DNA of 32,117 nucleotides, taken from an uncultured Candidatus Saccharibacteria bacterium (GTDB lineage Bacteria; Patescibacteriota; Minisyncoccia; Phycocordibacterales; UBA2100). Numbering within the stretch: position 1 is the stretch's first letter; each line of letters starts with the position of its first letter. The notes under the pieces were generated by a model. It saw nothing but the letters and a program-made list of their open reading frames with translations, did not search any database and was not told the DNA's origin. Positions 1-28,085 of this stretch are shown piece after piece. Made by a program: the position numbers and the translations under genes. The stretch spans positions 1 to 32,117 of the forward strand of contig CAZFMA010000027.1 of assembly GCA_964520015.1 (NCBI GenBank). Reading direction: 5' to 3'.

Positions 1-7
1 AATGGAA

Positions 8-160
8 TCCCGTTAGAAGTCACGGAAGTTCATACGTATAGGGAAACCGTAATACAGATATGTTCATCAGAAAATTACTGGCCTCGATAGCGGAGATGGA
101 AGCGCAAGCCCCGTTAGAAGCGAAGCTTCTAACGGGGCAAGCTTCCTACTTCTAACGGGA
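8..160. mobile_element. Family-1 palindromic-terminus element, copy 1 (terminal inverted repeats TCCCGTTAGAAGT / ACTTCTAACGGGA)
   Basis: The 13-nt arms at 8-20 and 148-160 are exact reverse complements. TGGAA at 3-7 is repeated at 161-165 directly outside the arms. The terminal A160 supplies the A of the arginase ATG. Confidence 0.6.
109..137. repeat. Family-1 minimal palindrome nested inside copy 1 (CCCCGTTAGAAGC-GAA-GCTTCTAACGGGG)
   Basis: Perfect 13-bp stem with a GAA loop. CAAG flanks it on both sides (105-108 and 138-141). Confidence 0.6.
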
Positions 161-1173
161 TGGAACGAGATTCGCTTTCTTTTTACAAACGATCAACCTC
201 TCGTGACCCAGTCACTCTTCTCTCGGTTCCTCTTGAGATCGGCTCTGACGAGCGCGGATTAGCAGAAGCCCCAAAATATCTTTTCGATCAGGGGCTAGAA
301 AAAGTCCTCGCTTCTTTAGGGCGCGAGATTTCTCAGGCGAAGACAATTTCAGTTCCGCAGGTGAAGCAGATAGCGAGCGCAGGACGAATGAAATACGCGG
401 AAGAGATTGCGGCCGTTGCGAAGCGTGTTGCGATTGCTACCGAAAAGGCGTTAAAAAGAGGGGATACGGTAATCGCGCTTGGCGGGGACCATTCGATTTC
501 GATGGGCACGATCGCGGGCGCTGCCGCGGCCCATCAATCTTTGGGAGTGATCTATATCGATGCACATCCCGACTGCAATACCGATGAAACGACGATCTCG
601 GGTAACGTCCACGGGATGGTGACCGCCGCCGTAATGGGAGTGGGACATGAGATCCTCACGAAGATCGCAAAGCGACACGTTGCTCCGGAGGACTTCGTTT
701 TCCTTGGCCTCAAAGATATCGATGAGGCAGAAATAGAATTTTTGCAAAAGCGATCGATTTCATGCACGACGGTCTTCGATATTGCGAGACATGGGCTCGC
801 ACCCGCCCTCGCAGCGATCGATCGGCTCGCACACAAAGTGGATGCCGTGTGGATCTCTCTCGACATGGACGCAATTGACGCCGCATACGCTCCCGGGGTG
901 GGGCTTGATTCTCCTGACGGGCTCACAAGGCGAGAAATTGTGGCGATCGCGCAATATATCGGAAAGGTCTGCCGTGTCGCAGGACTCGATATCGTTGAAA
1001 TGGTGCCTAAAAAAGATAAAGACGCAAAGACCGCGGGTCTCGCCCTCGAACTCCTCGCGCGTTTGCTCGGAGGCGAATACAGCTGGTACAAGGGCTACAT
1101 GGATACGTATCGAGAGACGAACGTCACGGCGCCTGAGCGACTACCTATGCACGTGCGAGGGCGAGGAGTGTAA
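160..1173 (+). CDS. Arginase/agmatinase/formiminoglutamase-family ureohydrolase
   Basis: 337-aa ORF carrying the family metal-binding motifs GGDHSIS, IYIDAHPD and SLDMDAIDAAYAPGVG. Confidence 0.85.
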   Translation: MERDSLSFYKRSTSRDPVTLLSVPLEIGSDERGLAEAPKYLFDQGLEKVLASLGREISQAKTISVPQVKQIASAGRMKYAEEIAAVAKRVAIATEKALKRGDTVIALGGDHSISMGTIAGAAAAHQSLGVIYIDAHPDCNTDETTISGNVHGMVTAAVMGVGHEILTKIAKRHVAPEDFVFLGLKDIDEAEIEFLQKRSISCTTVFDIARHGLAPALAAIDRLAHKVDAVWISLDMDAIDAAYAPGVGLDSPDGLTRREIVAIAQYIGKVCRVAGLDIVEMVPKKDKDAKTAGLALELLARLLGGEYSWYKGYMDTYRETNVTAPERLPMHVRGRGV

Positions 1174-1888: not shown

Positions 1889-1966
1889 CCCCGTTAGAAG
1901 CTTCGAGAATTGTGCCTCGGTCGGCATTATTGAAAAACTTTTAATATCTTATGGCTTCTAACGGGG
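1889..1966. mobile_element. Family-1 palindromic-terminus element, copy 2
   Basis: Arms CCCCGTTAGAAGC (1889-1901) and GCTTCTAACGGGG (1954-1966) are exact reverse complements around a 52-nt AT-rich core. TGGA flanks both sides (1885-1888, 1967-1970). Confidence 0.65.
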
Positions 1967-2298: not shown

Positions 2299-2431
2299 TA
2301 TAGTCTCGTTCCTTGTTCTTTGAGAAAAAAGTATTGCCGCAGCGCAAAGGAGCTTGAGATCAGGCTCTTTCCCGCTGTGGCAAACTCCGGATGAGCCGGA
2401 GAGCCAGCAGCGCAACAGAAGGAACTCCCAC

Positions 2432-3088
2432 ATGAGTGGCACTCCCTTCTCGACCGGGCAGCTCGGCAAGCTGCAGAACATCGTCAATATCGGCATCGCC
2501 ACGGCGCTGCCGAAGGTGGCGAAGCGTTTCGAGCCCAAGAGCACCCTCAAGGCGCTCGAGGGCAAGGGTGAAGTGTTTGCCGGCCGTATCGAGGGCGCTC
2601 TCGAGAAGGCCATCACGAGCATGCTCGTGTTGCGCCGCATCGGCACGGCGACCGTCGTACTCGACGGGCCGCACGACCCCGACTCCTACCACCGGACCCG
2701 CGAGGGCCTCTGGGTCTACGGCGACTATCGGAGCCGCATCGTCGCCGAGGCGAAGCCGACTCCGGCAGGTACGACCTTCAAGGTCGACATCGCCGAGATC
2801 GGGCAGGAGGGCGGCGCGACGGACGAGGAGATCGAGGACGCGTTGCCCAAGAACCACCTCTTCGGTGAGTCGCAGGTCTGCGCCGTCATCGCGGGCCTCA
2901 TCGCCAAGCAGCCGCGCGGCGAGGAAGGCGACCTCGACAATCGGGGCTATGCCAATCTCTTCTACACGTCTTCCTGCGTCGTCAACGTCGACTGGGGCGC
3001 CGTCCGCCGGGAGTGGAACGTCATCACGTGGAATCGCGACGACAGCAGGTGGGGCGCTGGCGTTCGCGTCCTGTCTCCCGCCAACTGA
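2432..3088 (+). CDS. DGR target (variable) protein with C-terminal VR
   Basis: The ORF ends in the VR. I prefer ATG 2432, which is preceded by AGAAGGAA, over the TTG at 2354 in the ORF track. About 65 percent GC, so spurious ORFs fill the other frames. No signal peptide or TM segment is visible. Confidence 0.8.
   Translation: MSGTPFSTGQLGKLQNIVNIGIATALPKVAKRFEPKSTLKALEGKGEVFAGRIEGALEKAITSMLVLRRIGTATVVLDGPHDPDSYHRTREGLWVYGDYRSRIVAEAKPTPAGTTFKVDIAEIGQEGGATDEEIEDALPKNHLFGESQVCAVIAGLIAKQPRGEEGDLDNRGYANLFYTSSCVVNVDWGAVRREWNVITWNRDDSRWGAGVRVLSPAN
2972..3083 (+). repeat. DGR variable repeat (VR)
   Basis: 112 nt align without gaps to 3416-3527. There are 15 differences, all at TR adenines. The VR covers the last 37 codons of the target gene. 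Confidence 0.92.
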
Positions 3089-3103
3089 CCCCTCGCTCAC
3101 TTT

Positions 3104-3122
3104 GTCCCGCCGGAGGCGGGAC
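3104..3122 (+). promoter_or_regulatory. GC-rich hairpin 20 nt downstream of VR (candidate DGR target-recognition hairpin)
   Basis: GTCCCGCC-GGA-GGCGGGAC: an 8-bp GC stem with a 3-nt loop. DGR systems are known to use a hairpin/cruciform 3' of the VR. Confidence 0.55.
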
Positions 3123-3174
3123 GGAATCTTCGGTCCCTTTGACACTGTGTCACTTGGGCCGAGGATTCTTTTTT

Positions 3175-3183
3175 TGATACAAT
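3175..3183 (+). promoter_or_regulatory. Extended -10 promoter element TGATACAAT, candidate promoter for the TR RNA
   Basis: Matches TGnTAnAAT. It follows the T-run after the target gene and lies about 230 nt upstream of the TR. Confidence 0.4.
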
Positions 3184-3415
3184 AGAGAAGAAATTTCCGG
3201 CACTGCGGCGGTTACGGCTTCCGCGTGGAGATTTTGGAACGAAGCGTGCCGGAATTCTTTTGGCTACGGCTTGAAGGCGCGCGCGTGCTTCGCTTTCAAC
3301 AAAAAACATTGGTCAGTTGGTATCCGCAATCGGTGGGCTTCGAGACCCCACGTCAGGTTCACTCCGGAGAGTATTCGACGGAGGGTGGCACGGATGGCTG
3401 CGGATACGAGAGGGC

Positions 3416-3527
3416 TCCTGCGTCGTCAACGTCAACTGGAACGCCGACAACCGGAAGTGGAACGTCAACACGTGGAATCGCGACGACAACAGGTGGAACG
3501 CTGGCAATCGCGTCCTGTCTCCCGAAA
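3416..3527 (+). repeat. DGR template repeat (TR)
   Basis: Invariant copy of the VR. It holds 30 adenines, many in AAC/AAT codons, and 15 of them are substituted in the VR. All 82 non-adenine positions are identical. Confidence 0.92.
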
Positions 3528-3538
3528 CTCCCAAGTTT

Positions 3539-3561
3539 CTCCCGCACTTACCGTGCGGGAG
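3539..3561. terminator. Hairpin after TR (CTCCCGCAC-TTACC-GTGCGGGAG) followed by TTTTCGTTT
   Basis: 9-bp stem with a T-rich tail on the plus strand. It overlaps the 3' end of the antisense Avd ORF. Confidence 0.45.
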
Positions 3562-3895
3562 TTTTCGTTTCGAGGCCTTTCTTCCAGCCACCTATCATGC
3601 GACCGAGCTCGTCGAGCCTTTCCGATAGAAGGGTGTACTTCTTAGTATCGATCGCGCAAAGCTCCCAAGCAATACGGAGTAGAAACTTCAACAAGTCAGT
3701 TTTCTTGAGCGCGGCGGTTATCGTAGGCAATTTTTCGTGCCTGCTCTGATAACTCGCGATGAAAAGGTATTCGAGTATAAGGATGAACGTCATGTCTATC
3801 TTATCGCCAAGCGTATATCGCGAGCTTTTGGGGAAGTCGTTCCGGAAGCCGTGCCAGAGTTTGTATACTGTCACTGTATGTTCGATAACAGGCAA
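3548..3895 (-). CDS. avd: Avd-like accessory variability determinant (four-helix-bundle / 23S rRNA IVS protein family)
   Basis: 115-aa basic ORF with [24 protein letters not shown] near the N-terminus and a GGWKKGL tail, both typical of this family. It uses a TTG start and lies between the TR and the RT, but on the opposite strand. Confidence 0.75.
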
Positions 3896-3924
3896 AATGC
3901 GTCGGTGGGGGGCATTCTAGGATT

Positions 3925-4920
3925 TTGTTCGCTCATACCTACGACGATATCATCTCCGTCGAGAATGTGCTCGGTGCGTGGAAGGAGTTCGTGAGAGGAA
4001 AGCGGAAGAAGAAAGACGTACAGAAATTCCAATACCGATTGATGGATAGCATTCTTGCACTCCATCGGGACTTGCAAGAAGGATCATACTGCCACGGCGG
4101 CTACCAGGCGTTTAAGATCAGCGATCCAAAGCCGCGCGACATCCACAAAGCAACAGTACGCGATCGCCTCGTTCACCACGCGTTGTACCGACAACTCTAC
4201 CCGTTCTTCGACCGTACCTTTATTTCCGATTCGTATTCTTGCAGGAAAGGTAAAGGTACACACCGCGCGATGAATCGCTTTCGCTCATTTGCGTACAAAG
4301 TCTCTAAGAACCACACGCGTACGTGCTGGGTCCTCAAGTGCGATATTCGCAAGTTCTTCGCCTCGATTGATCAGTCCATCCTACTGGGAATTATTGAACG
4401 ATATATTCCCGATCAAGATGTACGTTGGCTCATCGGACAAGTCGTCACTAGCTTCTCAACTACGGCAAGGCCGGGCCTTGCCGCATCGCGTGTTGGACTG
4501 CCACTCGGCAATCTCACAAGCCAACTTCTCGTCAACATCTACATGAACGAGTTCGATCAATTCGTAAAGCACAAACTGAAAGCGAAATACTATGTCCGTT
4601 ACGCCGACGATTTCGTGATTCTCTCGCATGACAGGAAACGACTCACATCAATAGGGCGATATATCGCTATGTTCTTACGGGAGCGGCTGAAGCTCGAATT
4701 GCACCCCAATAAACTATTCCTTAAGACACTTGCATCCGGCGTTGATTTTCTCGGCTGGGTTCATTTTCCCGATCATCGAGTCCTGCGGACGGCTACAAAA
4801 CGAAGAATGCTTAAACGCATGGAAGATTACGACAATGAAAATGTCATCAACTCATATCTCGGCATGCTCTCACACGGGAATGCGCGCAGACTTGTCGGGA
4901 AGATAAACAAAATCACGTGA
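3925..4920 (+). CDS. DGR-type reverse transcriptase
   Basis: 331-aa ORF with the RT motif 5 YVRYADDFVIL and the DGR-typical motif 4 LPLGNLTSQLL. There is no maturase or endonuclease extension. TTG start. Confidence 0.9.
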   Translation: MFAHTYDDIISVENVLGAWKEFVRGKRKKKDVQKFQYRLMDSILALHRDLQEGSYCHGGYQAFKISDPKPRDIHKATVRDRLVHHALYRQLYPFFDRTFISDSYSCRKGKGTHRAMNRFRSFAYKVSKNHTRTCWVLKCDIRKFFASIDQSILLGIIERYIPDQDVRWLIGQVVTSFSTTARPGLAASRVGLPLGNLTSQLLVNIYMNEFDQFVKHKLKAKYYVRYADDFVILSHDRKRLTSIGRYIAMFLRERLKLELHPNKLFLKTLASGVDFLGWVHFPDHRVLRTATKRRMLKRMEDYDNENVINSYLGMLSHGNARRLVGKINKIT

Positions 4921-5049
4921 CCCCGCACTAAACTTTGGCATTGCTCCCTTCGCGCCACACGTTCAGTCGACACCTTTTCTCTTTATTCGAGAAAACGGAG
5001 CGATTTGAGGGAATATATTCGCACAAAAATGCCGAAGTTAGTTCATGGG
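4921..5049. mobile_element. Family-2 inverted-repeat element, copy D (TTGGCAT...ATGCCGA termini)
   Basis: AACTTTGGCAT (4931-4941) pairs with ATGCCGAAGTT (5029-5039) with one G-U position and an 87-nt spacer. CCC/GGG outer ends match the other copies. No flanking direct repeat. Confidence 0.45.
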
Positions 5050-8198: not shown

Positions 8199-9968
8199 AT
8201 GCCGGCAGAGGGAACAATAACAACTGTTGCACCACATGCAGGAGATGCAGCCGGCGTCCCCATTCGCTCCCTTGGGGATACCAAGATTCCGTTCGAGACT
8301 CTGCGGTACATTCCGGAAGAGTCGGCGATGCACTATCGGTTGGTGCCGATCGGCGCCTCAGAAGGAGTGCTTGAAATTGGAATGCTTGATCCCGAGGATA
8401 TTCAGGGGATAGATGCGCTCAATTTTATTGCGCGTACCTCGGGGATGCCATTTAAGATTTTCCAGATTACCCAAGAAGATTTTGACAGGGTACTTGCTAT
8501 GTATCGCGGATTAGGAGGTGAAGTCGAGCAGGCAGTCACTGAGCTTGAGTCCGAAGCGAAAATGGAGAAAGGTAAGGGTCGCGAGAGCGCAGCTGGTGAG
8601 AGTGCGCCACTTGATCTTGAAGATCCTTCCATTGGGAAAGGGAAGGGATTAGGAATGGCAAAGATCCATGAAGATGCGCCCACAATCAAAATTGTTTCCA
8701 CGATTTTGCGCTACGCTGTCGAGGGTAGGGCATCTGATGTGCATATCGAGCCACAACCCAACGGCGTGCGGGTGCGCTACCGAGTGGATGGTGATCTGCA
8801 TACAAGCGTGGTTCTTCCCCTCAACACTCATCGCGCGCTTGTCGCGCGCGTAAAGGTCTTGGCAAGCATTCGGCTCGACGAAATGCGCAAACCGCAAGAT
8901 GGACGCTTTTCGGCGACAATCGATAATCGTCAGATCGACTTCCGCGTTTCGACATTTCCTTCATATAACGGTGAAAAAGTGGTGATCCGTATTCTTGATC
9001 GAGAACAGGGTTTTATCCCTCTTGATCGAATCGGTCTTACACCGCGCAATCTGACGCTTCTCAGGAATGCAGTAAAGCAGCCACACGGCCTTGTTTTGAT
9101 ATCAGGACCTACCGGATCCGGGAAATCGACAACACTCTACTCAATGCTCACCGAGGTTGATCGCGAGCACAAAAACGTTGTGTCTCTTGAGGACCCAATC
9201 GAATACTACGTTGATGGAGTAATTCAATCGCAGGTACATCCCGAAATTGGATATACCTTTGCCAACGGCTTACGCACAACGCTGCGCCAAGACCCGGATG
9301 TCATCATGGTGGGTGAAATACGCGACGGCGAAACGGCAAAGCTCGCGATTCAGGCGGCGCTCACTGGTCACCTGGTGCTTTCTACCATTCACACCAATGA
9401 CGCGGTGGGAGTGATACCCCGCCTCATTGACATGGGTGTCGAGCCGTATCTCATTCCTCCTGTTCTCATTCTTTCAATTGCGCAGCGCCTTTTGCGCACG
9501 TTTTGTGAGGACGGAGGCGCACAAGAAATCTCCATCGGCGCATCCGAACGAAAACGCATTGAAGAGCGGCTCTCCACTCTTCCCGAGCAGTATCGTTTCA
9601 AAATACCGGATACAGCGTATGAAGCGACACGCACGCCGACGTGTCCTACAGGCCTCAAGGGTCGCATGGCCGTTTTTGAGGTATTGGAAATGTCGCCGGC
9701 AATTGAGCAAATTATTCTCGAAAATCCCGTGGATTCGCGCATCTGGAAGGCTGCGCGCGAACAGGGAATGCTCACCATGCAGGAGGATGCTATGCTGAAA
9801 GCGTTTGAAAAGCATGTGCCGTTATCCGAAGTAAATACCCTCAGTACGCTATTACTTGCGGAAGAGGAAGAGGAAGAGAAAGAAACAAAAAACGAAATTG
9901 ATTCAGGAGCGGAGCCAGGAACCCCAGCCCCGCCTAAAACTGAAAACACGTCCGTTGAGGCCCGTTAG
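8199..9968 (+). CDS. pilB: Type IV pilus assembly ATPase PilB (GspE family)
   Basis: Walker A SGPTGSGKSTT, the GspE-family Asp/His boxes, and an N-terminal GspE_N-like region. The stop codon TAG lies inside the left arm of family-1 copy 3. Confidence 0.9.
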   Translation: MPAEGTITTVAPHAGDAAGVPIRSLGDTKIPFETLRYIPEESAMHYRLVPIGASEGVLEIGMLDPEDIQGIDALNFIARTSGMPFKIFQITQEDFDRVLAMYRGLGGEVEQAVTELESEAKMEKGKGRESAAGESAPLDLEDPSIGKGKGLGMAKIHEDAPTIKIVSTILRYAVEGRASDVHIEPQPNGVRVRYRVDGDLHTSVVLPLNTHRALVARVKVLASIRLDEMRKPQDGRFSATIDNRQIDFRVSTFPSYNGEKVVIRILDREQGFIPLDRIGLTPRNLTLLRNAVKQPHGLVLISGPTGSGKSTTLYSMLTEVDREHKNVVSLEDPIEYYVDGVIQSQVHPEIGYTFANGLRTTLRQDPDVIMVGEIRDGETAKLAIQAALTGHLVLSTIHTNDAVGVIPRLIDMGVEPYLIPPVLILSIAQRLLRTFCEDGGAQEISIGASERKRIEERLSTLPEQYRFKIPDTAYEATRTPTCPTGLKGRMAVFEVLEMSPAIEQIILENPVDSRIWKAAREQGMLTMQEDAMLKAFEKHVPLSEVNTLSTLLLAEEEEEEKETKNEIDSGAEPGTPAPPKTENTSVEAR

Positions 9969-10034
9969 AGGCTTCGTGTATTGAAAACAAAAGATCCTAT
10001 GAACCAAGACAAAAATAAAGAGGCCTCTAACGGG
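9961..10034. mobile_element. Family-1 palindromic-terminus element, copy 3
   Basis: CCCGTTAGAGGC (9961-9972) and GCCTCTAACGGG (10023-10034) around a 50-nt core. Compared with copy 2, the arm change A to G is matched by T to C. The core shares TTCG.G.ATTGAAAA with copy 2. Confidence 0.6.
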
Positions 10035-10436
10035 GTGAATGATACATCCCACAAAGGAACAGTTCTCTTGCTCGATGATGATAAGTTTCTCTTGGATATG
10101 TATATTGCGAAATTTACCGCCGCAGGATTTGTCGTTGAAGCATGCTTATCGAGTACAATCGCCCTCACAACTCTGCGAAGCGGTTTAGAGCCCACGGTGA
10201 TCCTTTTTGATATTACGATGCCAGAATTAGACGGACTCTCCTTCTTAAGAACACTCTCCAGTGAAAAATTGGCACCGAATGCACTCAAAATTGCTCTCTC
10301 AAATCAGGATAATGAAGCAGAAAAGACAGAGGCACTCAAATTGGGGGCAGCGCGTTATATTATAAAAGCGAGCATGATTCCTTCTGAAGTTGTCACTGCC
10401 GTTGAAGAAGAGCTCGCTCACAGTCAATCACACTAG
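9999..10436 (+). CDS. Stand-alone response-regulator receiver domain (CheY-like)
   Basis: VLLLDDD, FDITMPELDG and a conserved Lys region. The start is uncertain: TTG 9981, ATG 9999 (both inside the element) or GTG 10035 at the element edge. Confidence 0.75.
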   Translation: MNQDKNKEASNGVNDTSHKGTVLLLDDDKFLLDMYIAKFTAAGFVVEACLSSTIALTTLRSGLEPTVILFDITMPELDGLSFLRTLSSEKLAPNALKIALSNQDNEAEKTEALKLGAARYIIKASMIPSEVVTAVEEELAHSQSH

Positions 10437-14425: not shown

Positions 14426-15003
14426 TTGTAACCGCCATTATGGTGGTCATCACCTCAATCGTTCTGGTAAGTAGCGGCAGGTTTGGCGGTGTTGTGCAAC
14501 TTGAAAATCTTGCCTATGACGTAGCGCTCTCAGTCCGCCAAGCGCAAGTCTACGGCATATCGGTTGCCAGGTTCGGCACAGGCATATTTACCGCAGGTTA
14601 TGGAGTACATTTCGATATTTCAAGCCCCACCACCTATGCGCTTTTTGCCGACGCCTTGACCTCAAATGGTTTGTACGATTGCGCGAATCCTGTGAATCCG
14701 ACACCGGATAATTGCGAGTTGGTCCAGACAACAAGCATGATGGGCGGGCACAGTATCACCGGATTGTGCACGAAACCCCTCAATGGCCAGGAAAATTGTG
14801 GGGGTGTCACAAAAATCGACGTGGTCTTTATTCGTCCCGAGCCAGACGCGTGGATCAGTGTCGGAGATGTTTCGTGCATACTTCAAAACGGATCATGTCA
14901 GGGAGGTATGCGCGTCATCCTAACTTCACCGCGGGGGGACACGGCAAGTGTCGTGGTGGAGGCGAACGGACAAATTACCGTACGGCGCGGCGCGCAACAA
15001 TAG
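14356..15003 (+). CDS. Minor pilin / pseudopilin
   Basis: LRG/FTLIELLVV prepilin motif. The ATG start overlaps the pilD 3' end by 70 nt. Confidence 0.7.
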   Translation: MALSSLSRRPSVYLRGFTLIELLVVTAIMVVITSIVLVSSGRFGGVVQLENLAYDVALSVRQAQVYGISVARFGTGIFTAGYGVHFDISSPTTYALFADALTSNGLYDCANPVNPTPDNCELVQTTSMMGGHSITGLCTKPLNGQENCGGVTKIDVVFIRPEPDAWISVGDVSCILQNGSCQGGMRVILTSPRGDTASVVVEANGQITVRRGAQQ

Positions 15004-21835: not shown

Positions 21836-22918
21836 ATGCCAGAAGAGCAACCTAAATTCGATCATCGTGTCACAAATCCCGATCCTCATATCGTGGCACT
21901 TTTGGCGTCCATAGATGAGATGAGAGGCGTATTTCGCGTCGGTTTGCGCATGACACCGCAGGCCATTACCAGTCTGCGCAGGTCAGTCTTAATAACCTCA
22001 GCCGGTTCCTCAACCCGCATTGAAGGAGCAAGGCTCTCTGATGAGGAAGTGAGAAAAATAATGCAGGGACTCAAAATTCAAAAGTTTGCCGATCGCGATT
22101 CGCAGGAAGTGCAAGGTTATCTCGAAACGCTTCAAAACGTATTTGAGGATTACAAGACGATGCCGCTTCGCGATGGGATGATTAAGTCGCTCCATAAGGA
22201 ACTCCTCAAGTATTCAACGAAGGATGATGTGCATCGCGGCGACTGGAAGCAAAAGGAAAACGTTGTGGGCATCTTCGATAAGGATGGGCAGGTCGCTCGA
22301 ATCATGTTCGAGACAACGCCCGCATATCTTACGGGAAAAGAAATGACGGAACTCCTCGACTGGACGTATGAGGCCCTCGAAAAGGAGCGCTTCCATCCGC
22401 TTCTCATACTAGCGAATTTCATCATCGAGTTTCTGAGAATTCATCCGTTTGAAGACGGCAACGGGCGACTCTCCCGCGTCCTCTCAAATCTCTTGCTTCT
22501 GCGCTCTGGCTACACATTCGTAGAGTACGTGTCGCACGAACAGATCATCGAGGCTCGAAAGGACGAATATTATTTCGCACTGCGCGCATCGCAAGAAACG
22601 TTCAAGTCGCAAAAGAAGCCTGTAGGAGACAGGGAGACGATTGCGCCATGGCTCAACTTCTTTCTCTCTGTCGTGAAGAAACAGGCCGCAGATGCGATAG
22701 CGCTCATCGAGGATGAGACACAGGGGGATATGTTGTCGCCAAAACAAAAAGCGGTCTTCGAATACCTCTCAAAAGTGCGTGAGGGGATCCGCATGGAGAT
22801 CGCTAGAGCGACCGGTATTCTTTTGCCGACGGTAAGTAAGGCTCTTGAGCGGCTAGTTGAACTTGGAAAGATCAAGCGCCTAGGTCGCGGCCGCGCGACG
22901 CGGTATCAGAAAATCTGA
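21836..22918 (+). CDS. Fic-family protein (AMPylase-type) with C-terminal winged-helix domain
   Basis: Fic motif HPFEDGNGRLSR. The N-terminal STRIEG matches the (S/T)xxxE(G/N) auto-inhibitory helix motif. The C-terminal HTH-like region ends in RLGRGRATRYQK. Confidence 0.88.
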   Translation: MPEEQPKFDHRVTNPDPHIVALLASIDEMRGVFRVGLRMTPQAITSLRRSVLITSAGSSTRIEGARLSDEEVRKIMQGLKIQKFADRDSQEVQGYLETLQNVFEDYKTMPLRDGMIKSLHKELLKYSTKDDVHRGDWKQKENVVGIFDKDGQVARIMFETTPAYLTGKEMTELLDWTYEALEKERFHPLLILANFIIEFLRIHPFEDGNGRLSRVLSNLLLLRSGYTFVEYVSHEQIIEARKDEYYFALRASQETFKSQKKPVGDRETIAPWLNFFLSVVKKQAADAIALIEDETQGDMLSPKQKAVFEYLSKVREGIRMEIARATGILLPTVSKALERLVELGKIKRLGRGRATRYQKI

Positions 22919-22921
22919 CCT

Positions 22922-25042
22922 ATGTTTTCGCGAGAAGAGCGGGTCGAGATTTTCAGATCCCTCTTCAGGGGGCGCGAAGACGTGTTTGCACGACGATGGG
23001 AGAAGTGGAGTGGTGGTGTGAGCGGATATGCGCCCATGTATGCGGATCAAGATAAGGAATCATACGCCCCGCTCACGACAGGATGGATTGAGAAACACCT
23101 CATTGGTACTGCAACACTTGGAGCATATCCGTTGCTTAAGGACAATACGTCACTTTTCATCGTCGCTGATTTCGATGGAGATAGCTGGCGCAAGGCCGTC
23201 CAGAAATTTCTTGATGTGTGCAAAAAGCACGAACTCCATGTTGCCGTAGAGCGATCGCGTTCCGGAAAAGGCGCACATGTGTGGTGCTTTTTCTCTGCAT
23301 CATATCCTGCATACAAAAGCCGCCGCATTTTCCTCGCACTGCTGCGCGAAGCAGGATGCATTGACCCGCTGGAAAAGAACGAGGGATTCGACCGTCTGTT
23401 TCCGAATCAGGACTACTTGTCAGGTAAAGGACTTGGAAATCTCATCGCGCTGCCACTTCAGGGAGAATCGAGAAAGCGTGGCAACACTGTTTTCCTCGAT
23501 CCGGACAACAATTTTAATATCGTAGCCGACCAATGGCAATACCTACATGATATCCCGCGGGCTAGTATGGAGGAGCTTGACCATCTAGCGAGTCTGGACT
23601 TTCCTGCAGAAGAAAAGTCTCCCTCGAAACCCGCCCGCTTTGGTAAGACACTTGTTCTGACGCTCGAAAGCACGATTTCAATCCCCAAAAACATTCTGCC
23701 ACCCCACCTCGCTTCGTTCTTGCGGGAAGAACTCAACATTCTCAATATCGGCTACATCGTCAAAGAACGTGCGGGTCTGCCGACCTATGGCGAAAAGAAA
23801 TTTATCAAGACGCTGGAACAGACCGCCGACGCAATTCTCGTACCCCGCAGGTTCCTCAAAAGTCTCTATGCATGGCTCGACGAACGAAAAATCAAATATC
23901 GCATCATCGATAATCGATTGACGCTCGACCCTGTCGGGCTCCGGTCCACGCACACTATGCTGTCCTATCAGGAATCGGCAGTAGCCGCCTTTGATTCAAA
24001 GGAGCAAGGAATTCTCGTAGCCCCTGCAGGCGCGGGAAAAACATTTATGGGACTTGAAATCATCGCGCGGAAAAAGCAACCTGCGATAATTCTGACGCAC
24101 CGCAGACAGATATACGACCAGTGGCTGGAGCGAGTCGAGCATGGCTTTGGAATTCCTAAAACCAAGATCGGACAAATCGGCGGAGTGAAGAAAAATCCAA
24201 GCCAACCGATCACAGTCGCTATGGTACAAACACTCGCGCGTATGAAAGACATACATACGATCGCGGCTCAATTCGGCATGGTTCTTATTGACGAATGTCA
24301 CCATATGCCATCACGGATGTTCCGCGATGTGATTTCGAAATTCCCTGCACGGTATCGATTCGGACTCACCGCGACTCCATCGCGTAAGTATAATGACGAG
24401 AAATTAATTGGAGCATATCTTGGAGAGATTATTCACACGATCGACAAGGCAGAGATGCAAAGAGTTCCACAATCGCACGAACAAGTAGAGGACAGCGATG
24501 CAGTCGTCGTGAGGACGACAAGTCTTGCAACGCCATTCGGTACCTCGTCCCGTGATTTTCAACTTATATCGAAAGTACTTTCAAGCGACGCAAACCGAAA
24601 CGCGCTGATCGCCGCGGATATCGCGCGTGAGGCGCGGGAAGGCAGGAAATGTCTCGTGCTCACGGAGCGCAAGGAGCATGCGGAAATGCTTCGGGCATAT
24701 TTGCGACGCGATTTCGAGACAATCATGTTTTCCGGCGACCTGTCATCACGGCAACGCGCCTTCGCGCTGCAAAAAATAAAAGGTGGGAGGTTCCGTATCC
24801 TGATCGCGACGGGACAAATTCTGGGAGAAGGGGCAGACATAGCAGATCTTGAAGTTCTCTTTCTCGCATTTCCAGTTTCATTCCACGGCAAGCTTGCGCA
24901 ATATATCGGGCGTATTCGCAGGGAGGGAGGTGCCAAGAAAGTCTATGATTACCGGGATGCGGACGTACCGATCCTCGAAAAACTCTGGAAGAAACGAGCA
25001 ACGTATTATCGTAAGAACGATTTCGCAATAGAGGGTGTGTAA
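22922..25042 (+). CDS. Archaeo-eukaryotic primase (prim-pol) domain fused to an SF2 DEAD/DEAH-type helicase
   Basis: The N-terminus has FRGREDVFARRWE, ADFDGD (DxD) and SRSGKGAHVW (sGxGxH). Helicase motifs are APAGAGKT (I), LIDECHH (II), GLTATP (III) and QYIGRIRR (VI). It starts 3 nt after the Fic stop. Confidence 0.85.
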   Translation: MFSREERVEIFRSLFRGREDVFARRWEKWSGGVSGYAPMYADQDKESYAPLTTGWIEKHLIGTATLGAYPLLKDNTSLFIVADFDGDSWRKAVQKFLDVCKKHELHVAVERSRSGKGAHVWCFFSASYPAYKSRRIFLALLREAGCIDPLEKNEGFDRLFPNQDYLSGKGLGNLIALPLQGESRKRGNTVFLDPDNNFNIVADQWQYLHDIPRASMEELDHLASLDFPAEEKSPSKPARFGKTLVLTLESTISIPKNILPPHLASFLREELNILNIGYIVKERAGLPTYGEKKFIKTLEQTADAILVPRRFLKSLYAWLDERKIKYRIIDNRLTLDPVGLRSTHTMLSYQESAVAAFDSKEQGILVAPAGAGKTFMGLEIIARKKQPAIILTHRRQIYDQWLERVEHGFGIPKTKIGQIGGVKKNPSQPITVAMVQTLARMKDIHTIAAQFGMVLIDECHHMPSRMFRDVISKFPARYRFGLTATPSRKYNDEKLIGAYLGEIIHTIDKAEMQRVPQSHEQVEDSDAVVVRTTSLATPFGTSSRDFQLISKVLSSDANRNALIAADIAREAREGRKCLVLTERKEHAEMLRAYLRRDFETIMFSGDLSSRQRAFALQKIKGGRFRILIATGQILGEGADIADLEVLFLAFPVSFHGKLAQYIGRIRREGGAKKVYDYRDADVPILEKLWKKRATYYRKNDFAIEGV

Positions 25043-26393: not shown

Positions 26394-28085
26394 CTAATCG
26401 CTATCATACAGCATTCGCGCGAGGCGAAGAGCATCGTAAGTATACGCGCCACCAAGTTTTTCAAAGACAGGCGTGAGACGTTCAAGGCCGAGTTCGCGGA
26501 ATGCGGCGTGGATGATGGGAAGAGATTGTTTGAGCGTGGGAGAGACGAGCGGTTCTATGTCGGAGCGGCCGATGCGGCTTTTTGAGTAAAGATCGAAAAT
26601 GTGCGAGGAAATGGTTGTCTCGACCAATCCCCGTGCCTGCGCGATCTCGCGAATCGATTTGCCGCTTTTCAAAAGGGCGAACGTTGCTTCGAGTGTGGGA
26701 ATGCGGACTTCTTTCTTCTTCGGCCCCGCCCCGGCTTTCCCGCCGCATGCGCGGACAAAGTTTTCATGCATGGTTTCCAGCTCTTGCTTTGACATTGCTG
26801 CAAACTTTTCTCGCGATTTTTGTGAGTAGTCGCGAAATTCCGAGTCTTTCACCAGAATCTCGGGATGCACTTCGAGCGCACGTTGGTTCAAACCGGCGAG
26901 CGAGAGTCCGGCGAGCGTGCGCACGCGCGAGAGGGCGACATACCCTTGTCCGTATTCAAAGGTATCGGAGAGGTCCATGTGTGCGGCATCGAGCGACATC
27001 CCCTGGCTTTTATGCACGGTCATCGCCCACGCGAGCCGCAATGGAACTTGGATGATCCGCGCGAGGACTCGTCCGCCGTCTTCGATGCGCCATTCGTCCG
27101 GCTCTGCGAATATTGCTTTCCCGGCGTTGGTCTTCACGATCGGATATCCAGTGTCCGCGAATCCTGTAACGATGCCGAGCGTACCATTTACATATCGGTG
27201 CGTCGTCACATCGTTCTTGGTGAACATAACTCGTGCGCCGATCTTGAGCGAAAGTATTTCGGGCGAAAGGCAGCCGCGCTTCAGTGCCGCGACGAGCACC
27301 TCCCTGCCGCGACTTTCCATTTCAAATTGTTTCGTCGTGCCTACAAGTTTCGCTAATTCCGCATCATTGATCGCGTTGACATCGGTATTGTGCGAGTAGA
27401 GTTGTGTAATGCCGTCTTTCGGTGTGCGGGAGTAGCGCGTACGAAGTAATTGCCGATGTGGCTCTACTACGGTTGCGCGTCGAATTGCCGAGAGAAATTC
27501 GAGAAACACTGCATCTTCCTGCCGATGCTGCTCCGAGAGGTAGCAGACGAGCGGATTGAGCGTATTCCAGGTTGGAGAGAAAAATGCGAATTGTTGCTTT
27601 CCAACATCGGGAGTGAACGATTCCTGATCTTCGTCGTTTTCTCGTCTGTTGATCGGCGGAAGCTGGAAGAAATCGCCGACTAGAATGACTTGCAGCCCGC
27701 CGAAAGGTTGCGGGTTGTGGCGGACCTCTCGACACACCGCTTCTACCATCGAGAGCGTCCGCGCCGAGAGCATTGAGACCTCGTCAATAATGAGTATCTG
27801 TGCATTGCCGACTCGCCGGACGACATTTCTGTTCTGTCCGATGCGGTCGAGATCATACTTTGTGAGATCACGTCGTATACCGATACCGCTCCATGAATGG
27901 ATCGTGAATCCGCCGATATGGGTTGCGGCAATGCCGGTCGATGCCGTGATCGCGGGCTCGATGCCGCAGGAGCGCAAGTGCGCGACATATTGATTGATAG
28001 TGTGCGTTTTTCCGCTTCCTGGCTCGCCGGTCAAAAAGACATTTGCGCCGGTTTTCAAGATTGCGAGAGCTTCGGCTTGAGTCAT
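26394..28085 (-). CDS. Pif1/RecD-like SF1B DNA helicase with C-terminal HTH domain
   Basis: Walker A GEPGSGKTH, LIIDEVSM, VGDFFQLPP, the TVHKSQGMS and YVALSRV motifs, and a helical C-terminal extension. Confidence 0.85.
   Translation of the reverse strand: MTQAEALAILKTGANVFLTGEPGSGKTHTINQYVAHLRSCGIEPAITASTGIAATHIGGFTIHSWSGIGIRRDLTKYDLDRIGQNRNVVRRVGNAQILIIDEVSMLSARTLSMVEAVCREVRHNPQPFGGLQVILVGDFFQLPPINRRENDEDQESFTPDVGKQQFAFFSPTWNTLNPLVCYLSEQHRQEDAVFLEFLSAIRRATVVEPHRQLLRTRYSRTPKDGITQLYSHNTDVNAINDAELAKLVGTTKQFEMESRGREVLVAALKRGCLSPEILSLKIGARVMFTKNDVTTHRYVNGTLGIVTGFADTGYPIVKTNAGKAIFAEPDEWRIEDGGRVLARIIQVPLRLAWAMTVHKSQGMSLDAAHMDLSDTFEYGQGYVALSRVRTLAGLSLAGLNQRALEVHPEILVKDSEFRDYSQKSREKFAAMSKQELETMHENFVRACGGKAGAGPKKKEVRIPTLEATFALLKSGKSIREIAQARGLVETTISSHIFDLYSKSRIGRSDIEPLVSPTLKQSLPIIHAAFRELGLERLTPVFEKLGGAYTYDALRLARMLYDSD

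Follow-up and report, generated by a model that had tools for sequence, protein, structure and literature searches.

The stretch of DNA analysed here, referred to below as the window, is the entire 32,117-bp contig CAZFMA010000027.1 of an uncultured Candidatus Saccharibacteria bacterium. Close to its left end lies a non-coding segment bounded by inverted repeats, element A, which abuts the start of a gene for an arginase-family protein. A much shorter element with the same type of ends sits inside element A, and two further copies, elements B and C, are found where a gene for pterin-4a-carbinolamine dehydratase begins and between the genes of a PilB-type ATPase and a response regulator; a search of the window for additional degenerate copies returned none. 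The coordinates of all features are compiled in Table 1. Taken together with related copies from other genomes and metagenomes, these four copies indicate that element A is very probably a non-autonomous DNA element of the MITE type (miniature inverted-repeat transposable element), moved by a cut-or-copy-and-paste process.

Element A and the start codon of the arginase gene

The original prediction, made from the letters of the window, described the two arms of element A as perfect reverse complements with TGGAA directly outside both of them, and this is what the sequence contains; a repeat search lengthens the match between the arms to 14 nt (7-20/148-161). The 11-mer CCCGTTAGAAG has six exact occurrences in the window and its variant CCCGTTAGAGG has two, when only about 0.015 exact occurrences of CCCGTTAGAAG are expected from the sequence length, and with up to two mismatches allowed none of 100 shuffles matched the observed count. 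The arginase reading frame begins at position 160, so the A of its ATG is the last base of the element, as had also been claimed. The 170-nt stretch that includes element A is predicted to fold with -67.7 kcal/mol as RNA (z = -7.2) and with -38.2 kcal/mol as DNA (z = -7.5).

The closest homologues of the arginase were found in Candidatus Kaiserbacteria, with 89% identity (contig L121) and 72% identity (contig L125), and both contigs have the phosphatase, arginase, 221-aa, dehydratase and PilM genes in conserved order. At the arginase site both relatives are empty and read without interruption ...cggaaATGGAACGA... (aaATGGAACGA). The region upstream of the site in the relatives bears a tRNA. The window yields this same uninterrupted start once positions 8-160 and one TGGAA are removed, which bears out the restoration proposed in the original prediction.

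Elements B and C and their empty sites

Presence/absence polymorphism, for which the original prediction had recommended looking in relatives, was observed at the loci of elements B and C as well. The dehydratase genes of the two relatives start with ATGGACTTGGCACAG and ATGGATTTAGCACAA (ATGGACTTGGCA / ATGGATTTAGCA), and this start equals the window sequence after the removal of element B and one TGGA. At the locus of element C, the empty site is represented by contig L134, with gcagtATGAgtgat (gtATGAgtgat), a classic stop/start overlap, and contig L135 carries an intact orthologous copy, gtATGAA-CCCCGTTAGAGGC...GCCTCTAACGGGG-TGAATGAC, with TGAA on both sides. Element C of the window is the same insertion as that of L135 with its left duplication decayed, a decay through which PilB now terminates at a TAG within the left arm. 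A third contig, L137, from another lineage, has an element with a different interior at the same gtATGAAT site between the PilB and regulator genes, so this site has been hit at least twice independently. An alternative placement of the empty site, as GAATGATA with the regulator starting at ATGATA, was rejected for being in the wrong frame; the true site is gtATGAAT/gtATGAGT.

The response regulator of the window is called from an ATG within element C, and its N-terminus reads ...EASNGV. Most of its orthologues (P0241-P0360) are 132-133 aa long, and in a subset the N-terminus is extended by residues that include ASNGV, the translation of the right arm. At least 13 of the 120 regulator orthologue clusters carry an N-terminal (A/T)SNG(V/M/A), P0281 carrying it twice. 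PilB-type ATPase and PilC genes are also among the commonest neighbours of the elements, at 9 and 7 of 120 genome loci, respectively, which is consistent with repeated insertion at pilus-operon junctions such as gtATGAAT.

An unrelated observation concerns L121, in which an insert of about 170 nt that is not in the window lies between PilO and the next gene (14545-14680). It has a different inverted repeat, CCCAGCACCTTCT / AGAAGGTGCTGGG, with a left arm that includes CTTCTAACGG, and may be another type of hairpin element or a chimera.

A second insertion nested within element A

The original prediction also pointed out a 29-nt palindrome inside element A, between two copies of CAAG, and read it as a nested second insertion. 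The inner hairpin has 14-nt arms (108-121/125-138) and a GAA loop, and solo hairpins nearly identical to it occur at L011 3720-3753 and L128 2557-2590. When metagenomes were scanned with the 20 nt that begin element A, ten contigs were retrieved that bear elements of about 120 nt with both subterminal regions of A; these A-type copies occupy six or more distinct loci, each adjoining a start codon. In an alignment, six A-type paralogs from groundwater metagenomes have an uninterrupted GGAAGCGCAAGCTTCC, without the 29-nt inner hairpin and one CAAG, where the window has GGAAGCG-CAAG-[29-nt hairpin]-CAAG-CTTCC, a 33-nt insert. Because these six paralogs lack the insert, the nesting is a real second insertion: at the level of sequence comparison, the inner hairpin is proven to be a later arrival in the GCAA loop of the A-type subterminal hairpin, with duplication of CAAG.

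A widespread family with conserved ends

The pattern CCCGTTAGARG-N40-70-CYTCTAACGGG was searched in species-representative genomes and retrieved at least 120 stretches. According to their record titles, the hosts among the matches listed include many lineages of Patescibacteria, Planctomycetota, Omnitrophota, Elusimicrobiota, Nitrospirota, Nitrospinota, Desulfobacterota and some Gammaproteobacteria. The consensus terminal inverted repeat, present at at least 120 loci, is the 13-nt YCCCGTTAGARGY. With one mismatch permitted, 154 copies had flanks long enough for analysis; they measure 27-183 nt (median 72), and 17 of them are nested. The base just outside each arm forms a C/G or T/A pair in 144 of the 154, and the outermost base therefore belongs to the inverted repeat.

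Tabulating the flanks, as the original prediction had suggested, revealed a clean 4-bp duplication, mostly TNNA, in 88 of the 154 copies, with 3 or 5 bp in minorities and T..A at both sides in 84. Flanking direct repeats thus accompany copies genome-wide, and the proposed duplication length of 4-5 bp is refined to a usual 4 bp, the 5-bp outer copy being a minority case. Beyond the duplication, R is preferred at the left side and Y at the right, giving a typical target of R-TNNA-Y (hyphens set off the duplicated bases). Palindromic duplications (TTAA, TATA, TCGA, TGCA) are nearly absent (2/88), and TTAA itself was found once. The base beyond the duplication correlates with the variable terminal base pair of the element (A where the ends are of the T form, G where they are of the C form), and 24 of the 88 clean cases resemble 6-bp duplications.

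Only two viral contigs (IMG/VR) matched the family, L128 at 2496-2590 and L129 at 4877-4942, one of the two copies being nested; such contigs could reflect a route of transfer between hosts or could be misclassified cellular DNA. None of the elements had an Rfam match, whether gathering scores were applied or E-values as high as 1-5 were accepted, and exact-sequence and keyword searches of the literature found no description of the family, which is apparently undescribed so far.

Insertion at start codons

In about a third of the outermost copies (47/138), the last base of the element and the TG that follows make up the ATG or GTG start of an open reading frame of at least 70 codons. Random hits on intergenic R-TNNA-Y sites would be expected to give a few percent of such junctions, a figure that is an estimate and does not come from a computed null model. 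The excess may be explained by the geometry of the insertion. The last base of the element is R and many duplications start with TG, so that an insertion into ATGNA remakes an ATG or GTG directly at the right junction and leaves the gene intact. This rebuilding, combined with how few other sites a compact genome tolerates, would leave about one third of the copies exactly on start codons. In the mRNA, the arms would pair into a long stem in which the new start codon is partly hidden, and ribosomes entering at the upstream ribosome site, which is preserved, and at the left-hand ATG would open it.

Interiors and their orientation

The interiors of the family are highly diverse, and the arms are all that elements A, B and C have in common with the other copies. 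Compared with shuffled controls, interiors are on average more structured (mean z = -1.3; 26% below -2); this holds for the GC-rich ones, and AT-rich interiors, including those of elements B and C, are unstructured. In several phyla, members of a two-hairpin subfamily have the same fold and fixed junction bases (T / CA / TTA) with a median sequence identity of 57%. No promoter or terminator consensus was found within the elements.

Where similar elements occupy non-orthologous start-codon sites, 19 of 21 pairs have the same orientation relative to the gene, corresponding to about 7 of 8 independent comparisons, which suggests orientation-dependent retention. The openness of the upstream reading frame was considered as the cause of this bias and rejected: the frame is open in 17 of 37 cases with the real interior and in 15 with the flipped one, both above the shuffled controls (23%). 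Designed translational coupling does not explain the bias either, as the element length is without preference modulo 3 (15/18/19).

Other features of the window

Besides the elements, the window contains a complete diversity-generating retroelement, in which all differences between the variable region and the template repeat fall at template adenines. The cassette is missing from the dehydratase-PilM interval of both relatives. Further along the contig, a Fic-domain gene is followed by the gene of a 706-aa protein that combines a primase domain of the TOTE conflict-system type with a helicase, and a PIF1-like helicase is encoded on the minus strand.

Table 1. Positions of the hairpin elements, their target duplications and other features in the window.
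Feature	Position	Strand	Remarks
TGGAA target duplication, left copy	3-7		With base 2, keeps the original ATGGAA start of the arginase gene
Outer element A	8-160		153 nt; A-type subfamily of about 120 nt with the nested 33-nt insert
Left terminal inverted repeat of A	8-20	+	TCCCGTTAGAAGT
A-type subterminal hairpin	98-146		GGAAGC GCAA GCTTCC when intact; loop split here by the nested insertion
CAAG target duplication, left copy	105-108		Single CAAG in intact paralogs
Nested minimal element	109-137		29 nt; CCCCGTTAGAAGC-GAA-GCTTCTAACGGGG
CAAG target duplication, right copy	138-141
Right terminal inverted repeat of A	148-160	+	ACTTCTAACGGGA; ends in A160, the first base of the arginase ATG
Arginase-family gene (PF00491)	160-1173	+	337 aa; start formed by the last base of A and TG of the duplication
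TGGAA target duplication, right copy	161-165
TGGA target duplication of element B	1885-1888 and 1967-1970
Element B	1889-1966		78 nt; start of the pterin-4a-carbinolamine dehydratase gene; flanks ATGGA-C...G-TGGAT
Diversity-generating retroelement	2354-4920		Complete
Retroelement target gene	2354-3088
Variable region	2972-3080
Template repeat	3416-3524
Avd-like gene	3548-3895	-
Reverse transcriptase	3925-4920
Duplication of element C, left copy	9956-9959		Decayed to TGAG
Element C	9960-10035		76 nt; between PilB-type ATPase stop and response-regulator start; partly decayed
Response regulator	9999-10436
Duplication of element C, right copy	10036-10039		TGAA
Fic-domain gene and 706-aa protein	21836-25042
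PIF1-like helicase	26394-28085	-

Mode of mobility

The family combines terminal inverted repeats (11-13-nt arms in the 154 copies), short target duplications (TGGAA, CAAG, TGGA and TGAA in the window), presence or absence at orthologous loci and the lack of coding capacity. The proposal that element A is a small non-autonomous mobile element is supported by the duplications across copies, the empty sites in relatives and the nested insertion, and we consider the MITE-type reading of positions 8-160 very probable. Element A inserted into A-TGGAA-C at the first arginase codons with duplication of TGGAA, and a minimal 29-nt member of the family later inserted into the hairpin loop of A with duplication of CAAG. 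The quasi-palindromic R-TNNA-Y is the preferred target, recognition of the conserved ends and a 4-bp staggered cut being the presumed work of a transposase acting in trans. The regularity of the duplications would be most simply explained by a DDE-type enzyme that acts in trans.

Several observations weigh against this interpretation. Pfam scans of the main open reading frames of the window found no transposase or autonomous copy, and neither was found in about 0.9 Mb around 120 other copies or among the ten metagenome matches to the A-type end, the search having covered pairs of ends at most 400 nt apart within 8-kb stretches. Among the neighbouring genes at the family loci, only housekeeping and pilus genes recur. 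The interiors differ greatly even within one genome, which is unusual for MITE bursts, and some subfamilies keep two internal hairpins despite their divergence, for which a double-strand DNA transposase would have no need. The outermost base (C or T) correlates with the base beyond the duplication, a relation that a simple 4-bp staggered cut leaves unexplained. Finally, the left flank of element A amounts to 7 nt at the contig end; these 7 nt equal the empty site of the relatives.

The regular 4-bp duplications, like the perfect terminal inverted repeats, are typical marks of integration into double strands by staggered cuts, and REP/RAYT and IS200/IS605 elements produce no duplication (REP, repetitive extragenic palindrome). 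For these reasons we regard it as unlikely that the elements move without a classical double-strand DDE transposase, whether as folded single strands in the manner of REP/REPIN-RAYT, IS200/IS605 or attC sites, or through an RNA intermediate. Movement as folded strands would explain the conserved internal hairpins, and it is favoured by the structure of the interiors relative to shuffled controls, by the fold and junction bases that the two-hairpin subfamily keeps across phyla, by the near absence of palindromic duplications and by the fact that no DDE transposase was found near the copies. Nevertheless, the AT-rich interiors are unstructured, and the polarity of attC sites is the opposite of that seen here.

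The position of a short segment bounded by inverted repeats directly upstream of genes, with an interior whose orientation relative to the gene is non-random, might also suggest an invertible DNA switch, in which a site-specific recombinase would flip a promoter or leader that is phase-variable. We hold this to be very improbable, as orthologous copies from different samples always have the same orientation, insertion polymorphism, target duplications and nesting are the behaviour of a transposon, no promoter-like site was found in the elements, and no recombinase gene was found nearby when the open reading frames of the window were scanned.

The very stable predicted fold that overlaps the start codon could be taken for a cis-regulatory RNA, a conserved and structured leader native to the arginase gene and not inserted there, an idea that the empty orthologous sites in syntenic relatives entirely without the element refute, that fits poorly with the same ends standing upstream of unrelated genes in many phyla and with the lack of an Rfam match, and to which we accord scarcely any probability. 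As for an assembly artefact, for which the position of element A 7 nt from the contig end could be cited, it is extremely improbable given three further copies well within the contig, ten independent metagenome contigs that carry the A-type subfamily internally, a 7-nt flank that is the native sequence of the relatives, and the fact that contigs are expected to break at dispersed repeats.

Returning to the MITE-type interpretation, a much broader version of it is conceivable, and we put it forward with considerable doubt. The family may represent pan-bacterial, ultra-small hairpin transposons with universal 13-bp ends, which would actively home to ATGNA starts and rebuild them, be kept in one orientation because their structured interiors serve the downstream gene as modular translational leaders, and be moved by a class of enzyme new to MITEs, either distantly piggyBac-like or recognising single-strand hairpins. 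This enzyme would then be shared or horizontally exchanged among Patescibacteria, Planctomycetota and other phyla of groundwater and sediment.

Implications

Patescibacteria are thought to be poor in mobile elements. The window is a 32-kb contig with four copies of one family, and two of the insertions postdate the split from the relative with 89% arginase identity. The occurrence of the same ends across phyla implies either a very conserved mobilising enzyme or frequent transfer between phyla.

The elements also affect the annotation and assembly of genomes. Gene callers extend proteins into the right arm, and the resulting N-termini, of the type M...(A/T)SNG(V/M), are spurious or have newly evolved, while the left arm can supply new stop codons to upstream genes; the motif M...SNG[VM] near the N-terminus could be used to mine databases for insertions and mis-called starts. 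In addition, the elements break assemblies. The geometry by which start codons are rebuilt amounts to a natural experiment, in which ribosome loading would tolerate a hairpin of 70-150 nt between the ribosome site and the start codon.

Relation to described repeat families

Integron attC sites have the form 5'-RYYYAAC ... GTTRRRY-3' and stand at the 3' ends of cassettes. This identity was rejected for the present elements, whose polarity is reversed (GTTAGAA ... TTCTAAC) and which lie at the 5' ends of genes. With REP and REPIN sequences the elements share their short, hairpin-forming, often inversely paired repeats, their location at gene boundaries, their non-autonomous nature and their abundance. 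REPs, however, have a GTAG-type 5' motif, cause no target duplication and depend on a single-copy RAYT gene, which they flank, whereas duplications are regular here, and Pfam scans of the main open reading frames of the window detected no Y1 transposase or RAYT-type gene.

Elements of the IS1380 family generate 4-5-bp repeats and have ends beginning with CC. Only this initial CC is shared between the hairpin family and the ends of ISEcp1 and of an IS1380 member from Ligilactobacillus (L133), and no terminal repeats were resolved for IS1247 and ISSsu5; ISEcp1 and two other members of the family were taken from plasmids. A search for ISEcp1 homologues returned close ISEcp1 relatives only, and tblastn with the ISEcp1 transposase against all element-bearing loci found no IS1380-like gene (PF13701-type DDD/DDE transposase) near any copy. 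The piggyBac superfamily, which is related to the bacterial IS1380 family (PMC5718144), resembles the present elements in its 4-bp T..A duplication (TTAA in piggyBac) and in its end, CCCTAGAAAG..., which is similar to CCCGTTAGAAG. It differs from them in its TTAA target, seen here in a single one of the 88 clean cases, and the hairpin elements have an extra variable base before CCCG. Parentage by IS1380 or piggyBac is a lead and not an assignment of membership.

Rickettsia palindromic elements are likewise palindromic mobile elements of compact genomes that occur within reading frames and are translated. They are specific to Rickettsia, 100-150 nt long and inserted in frame within genes, while the elements described here insert at the start codon, which they regenerate.

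Bacterial MITEs include the Correia elements of Neisseria, ERIC/IRU and bcr1 of Bacillus cereus. The present family agrees with them in its small, non-coding units with terminal inverted repeats, short target duplications, dispersed copies, presence or absence among strains, nesting, and hairpins in transcripts. Each known MITE family is restricted to one genus or family, its interiors are homogeneous, and it has an identifiable parent insertion sequence or at least a family assignment. In contrast, the elements described here have 13-nt ends that are identical across several phyla around interiors that are almost unrelated, no parent element was found for them, they include functional-looking units of as little as 27-29 nt, and they rebuild start codons at their junctions.
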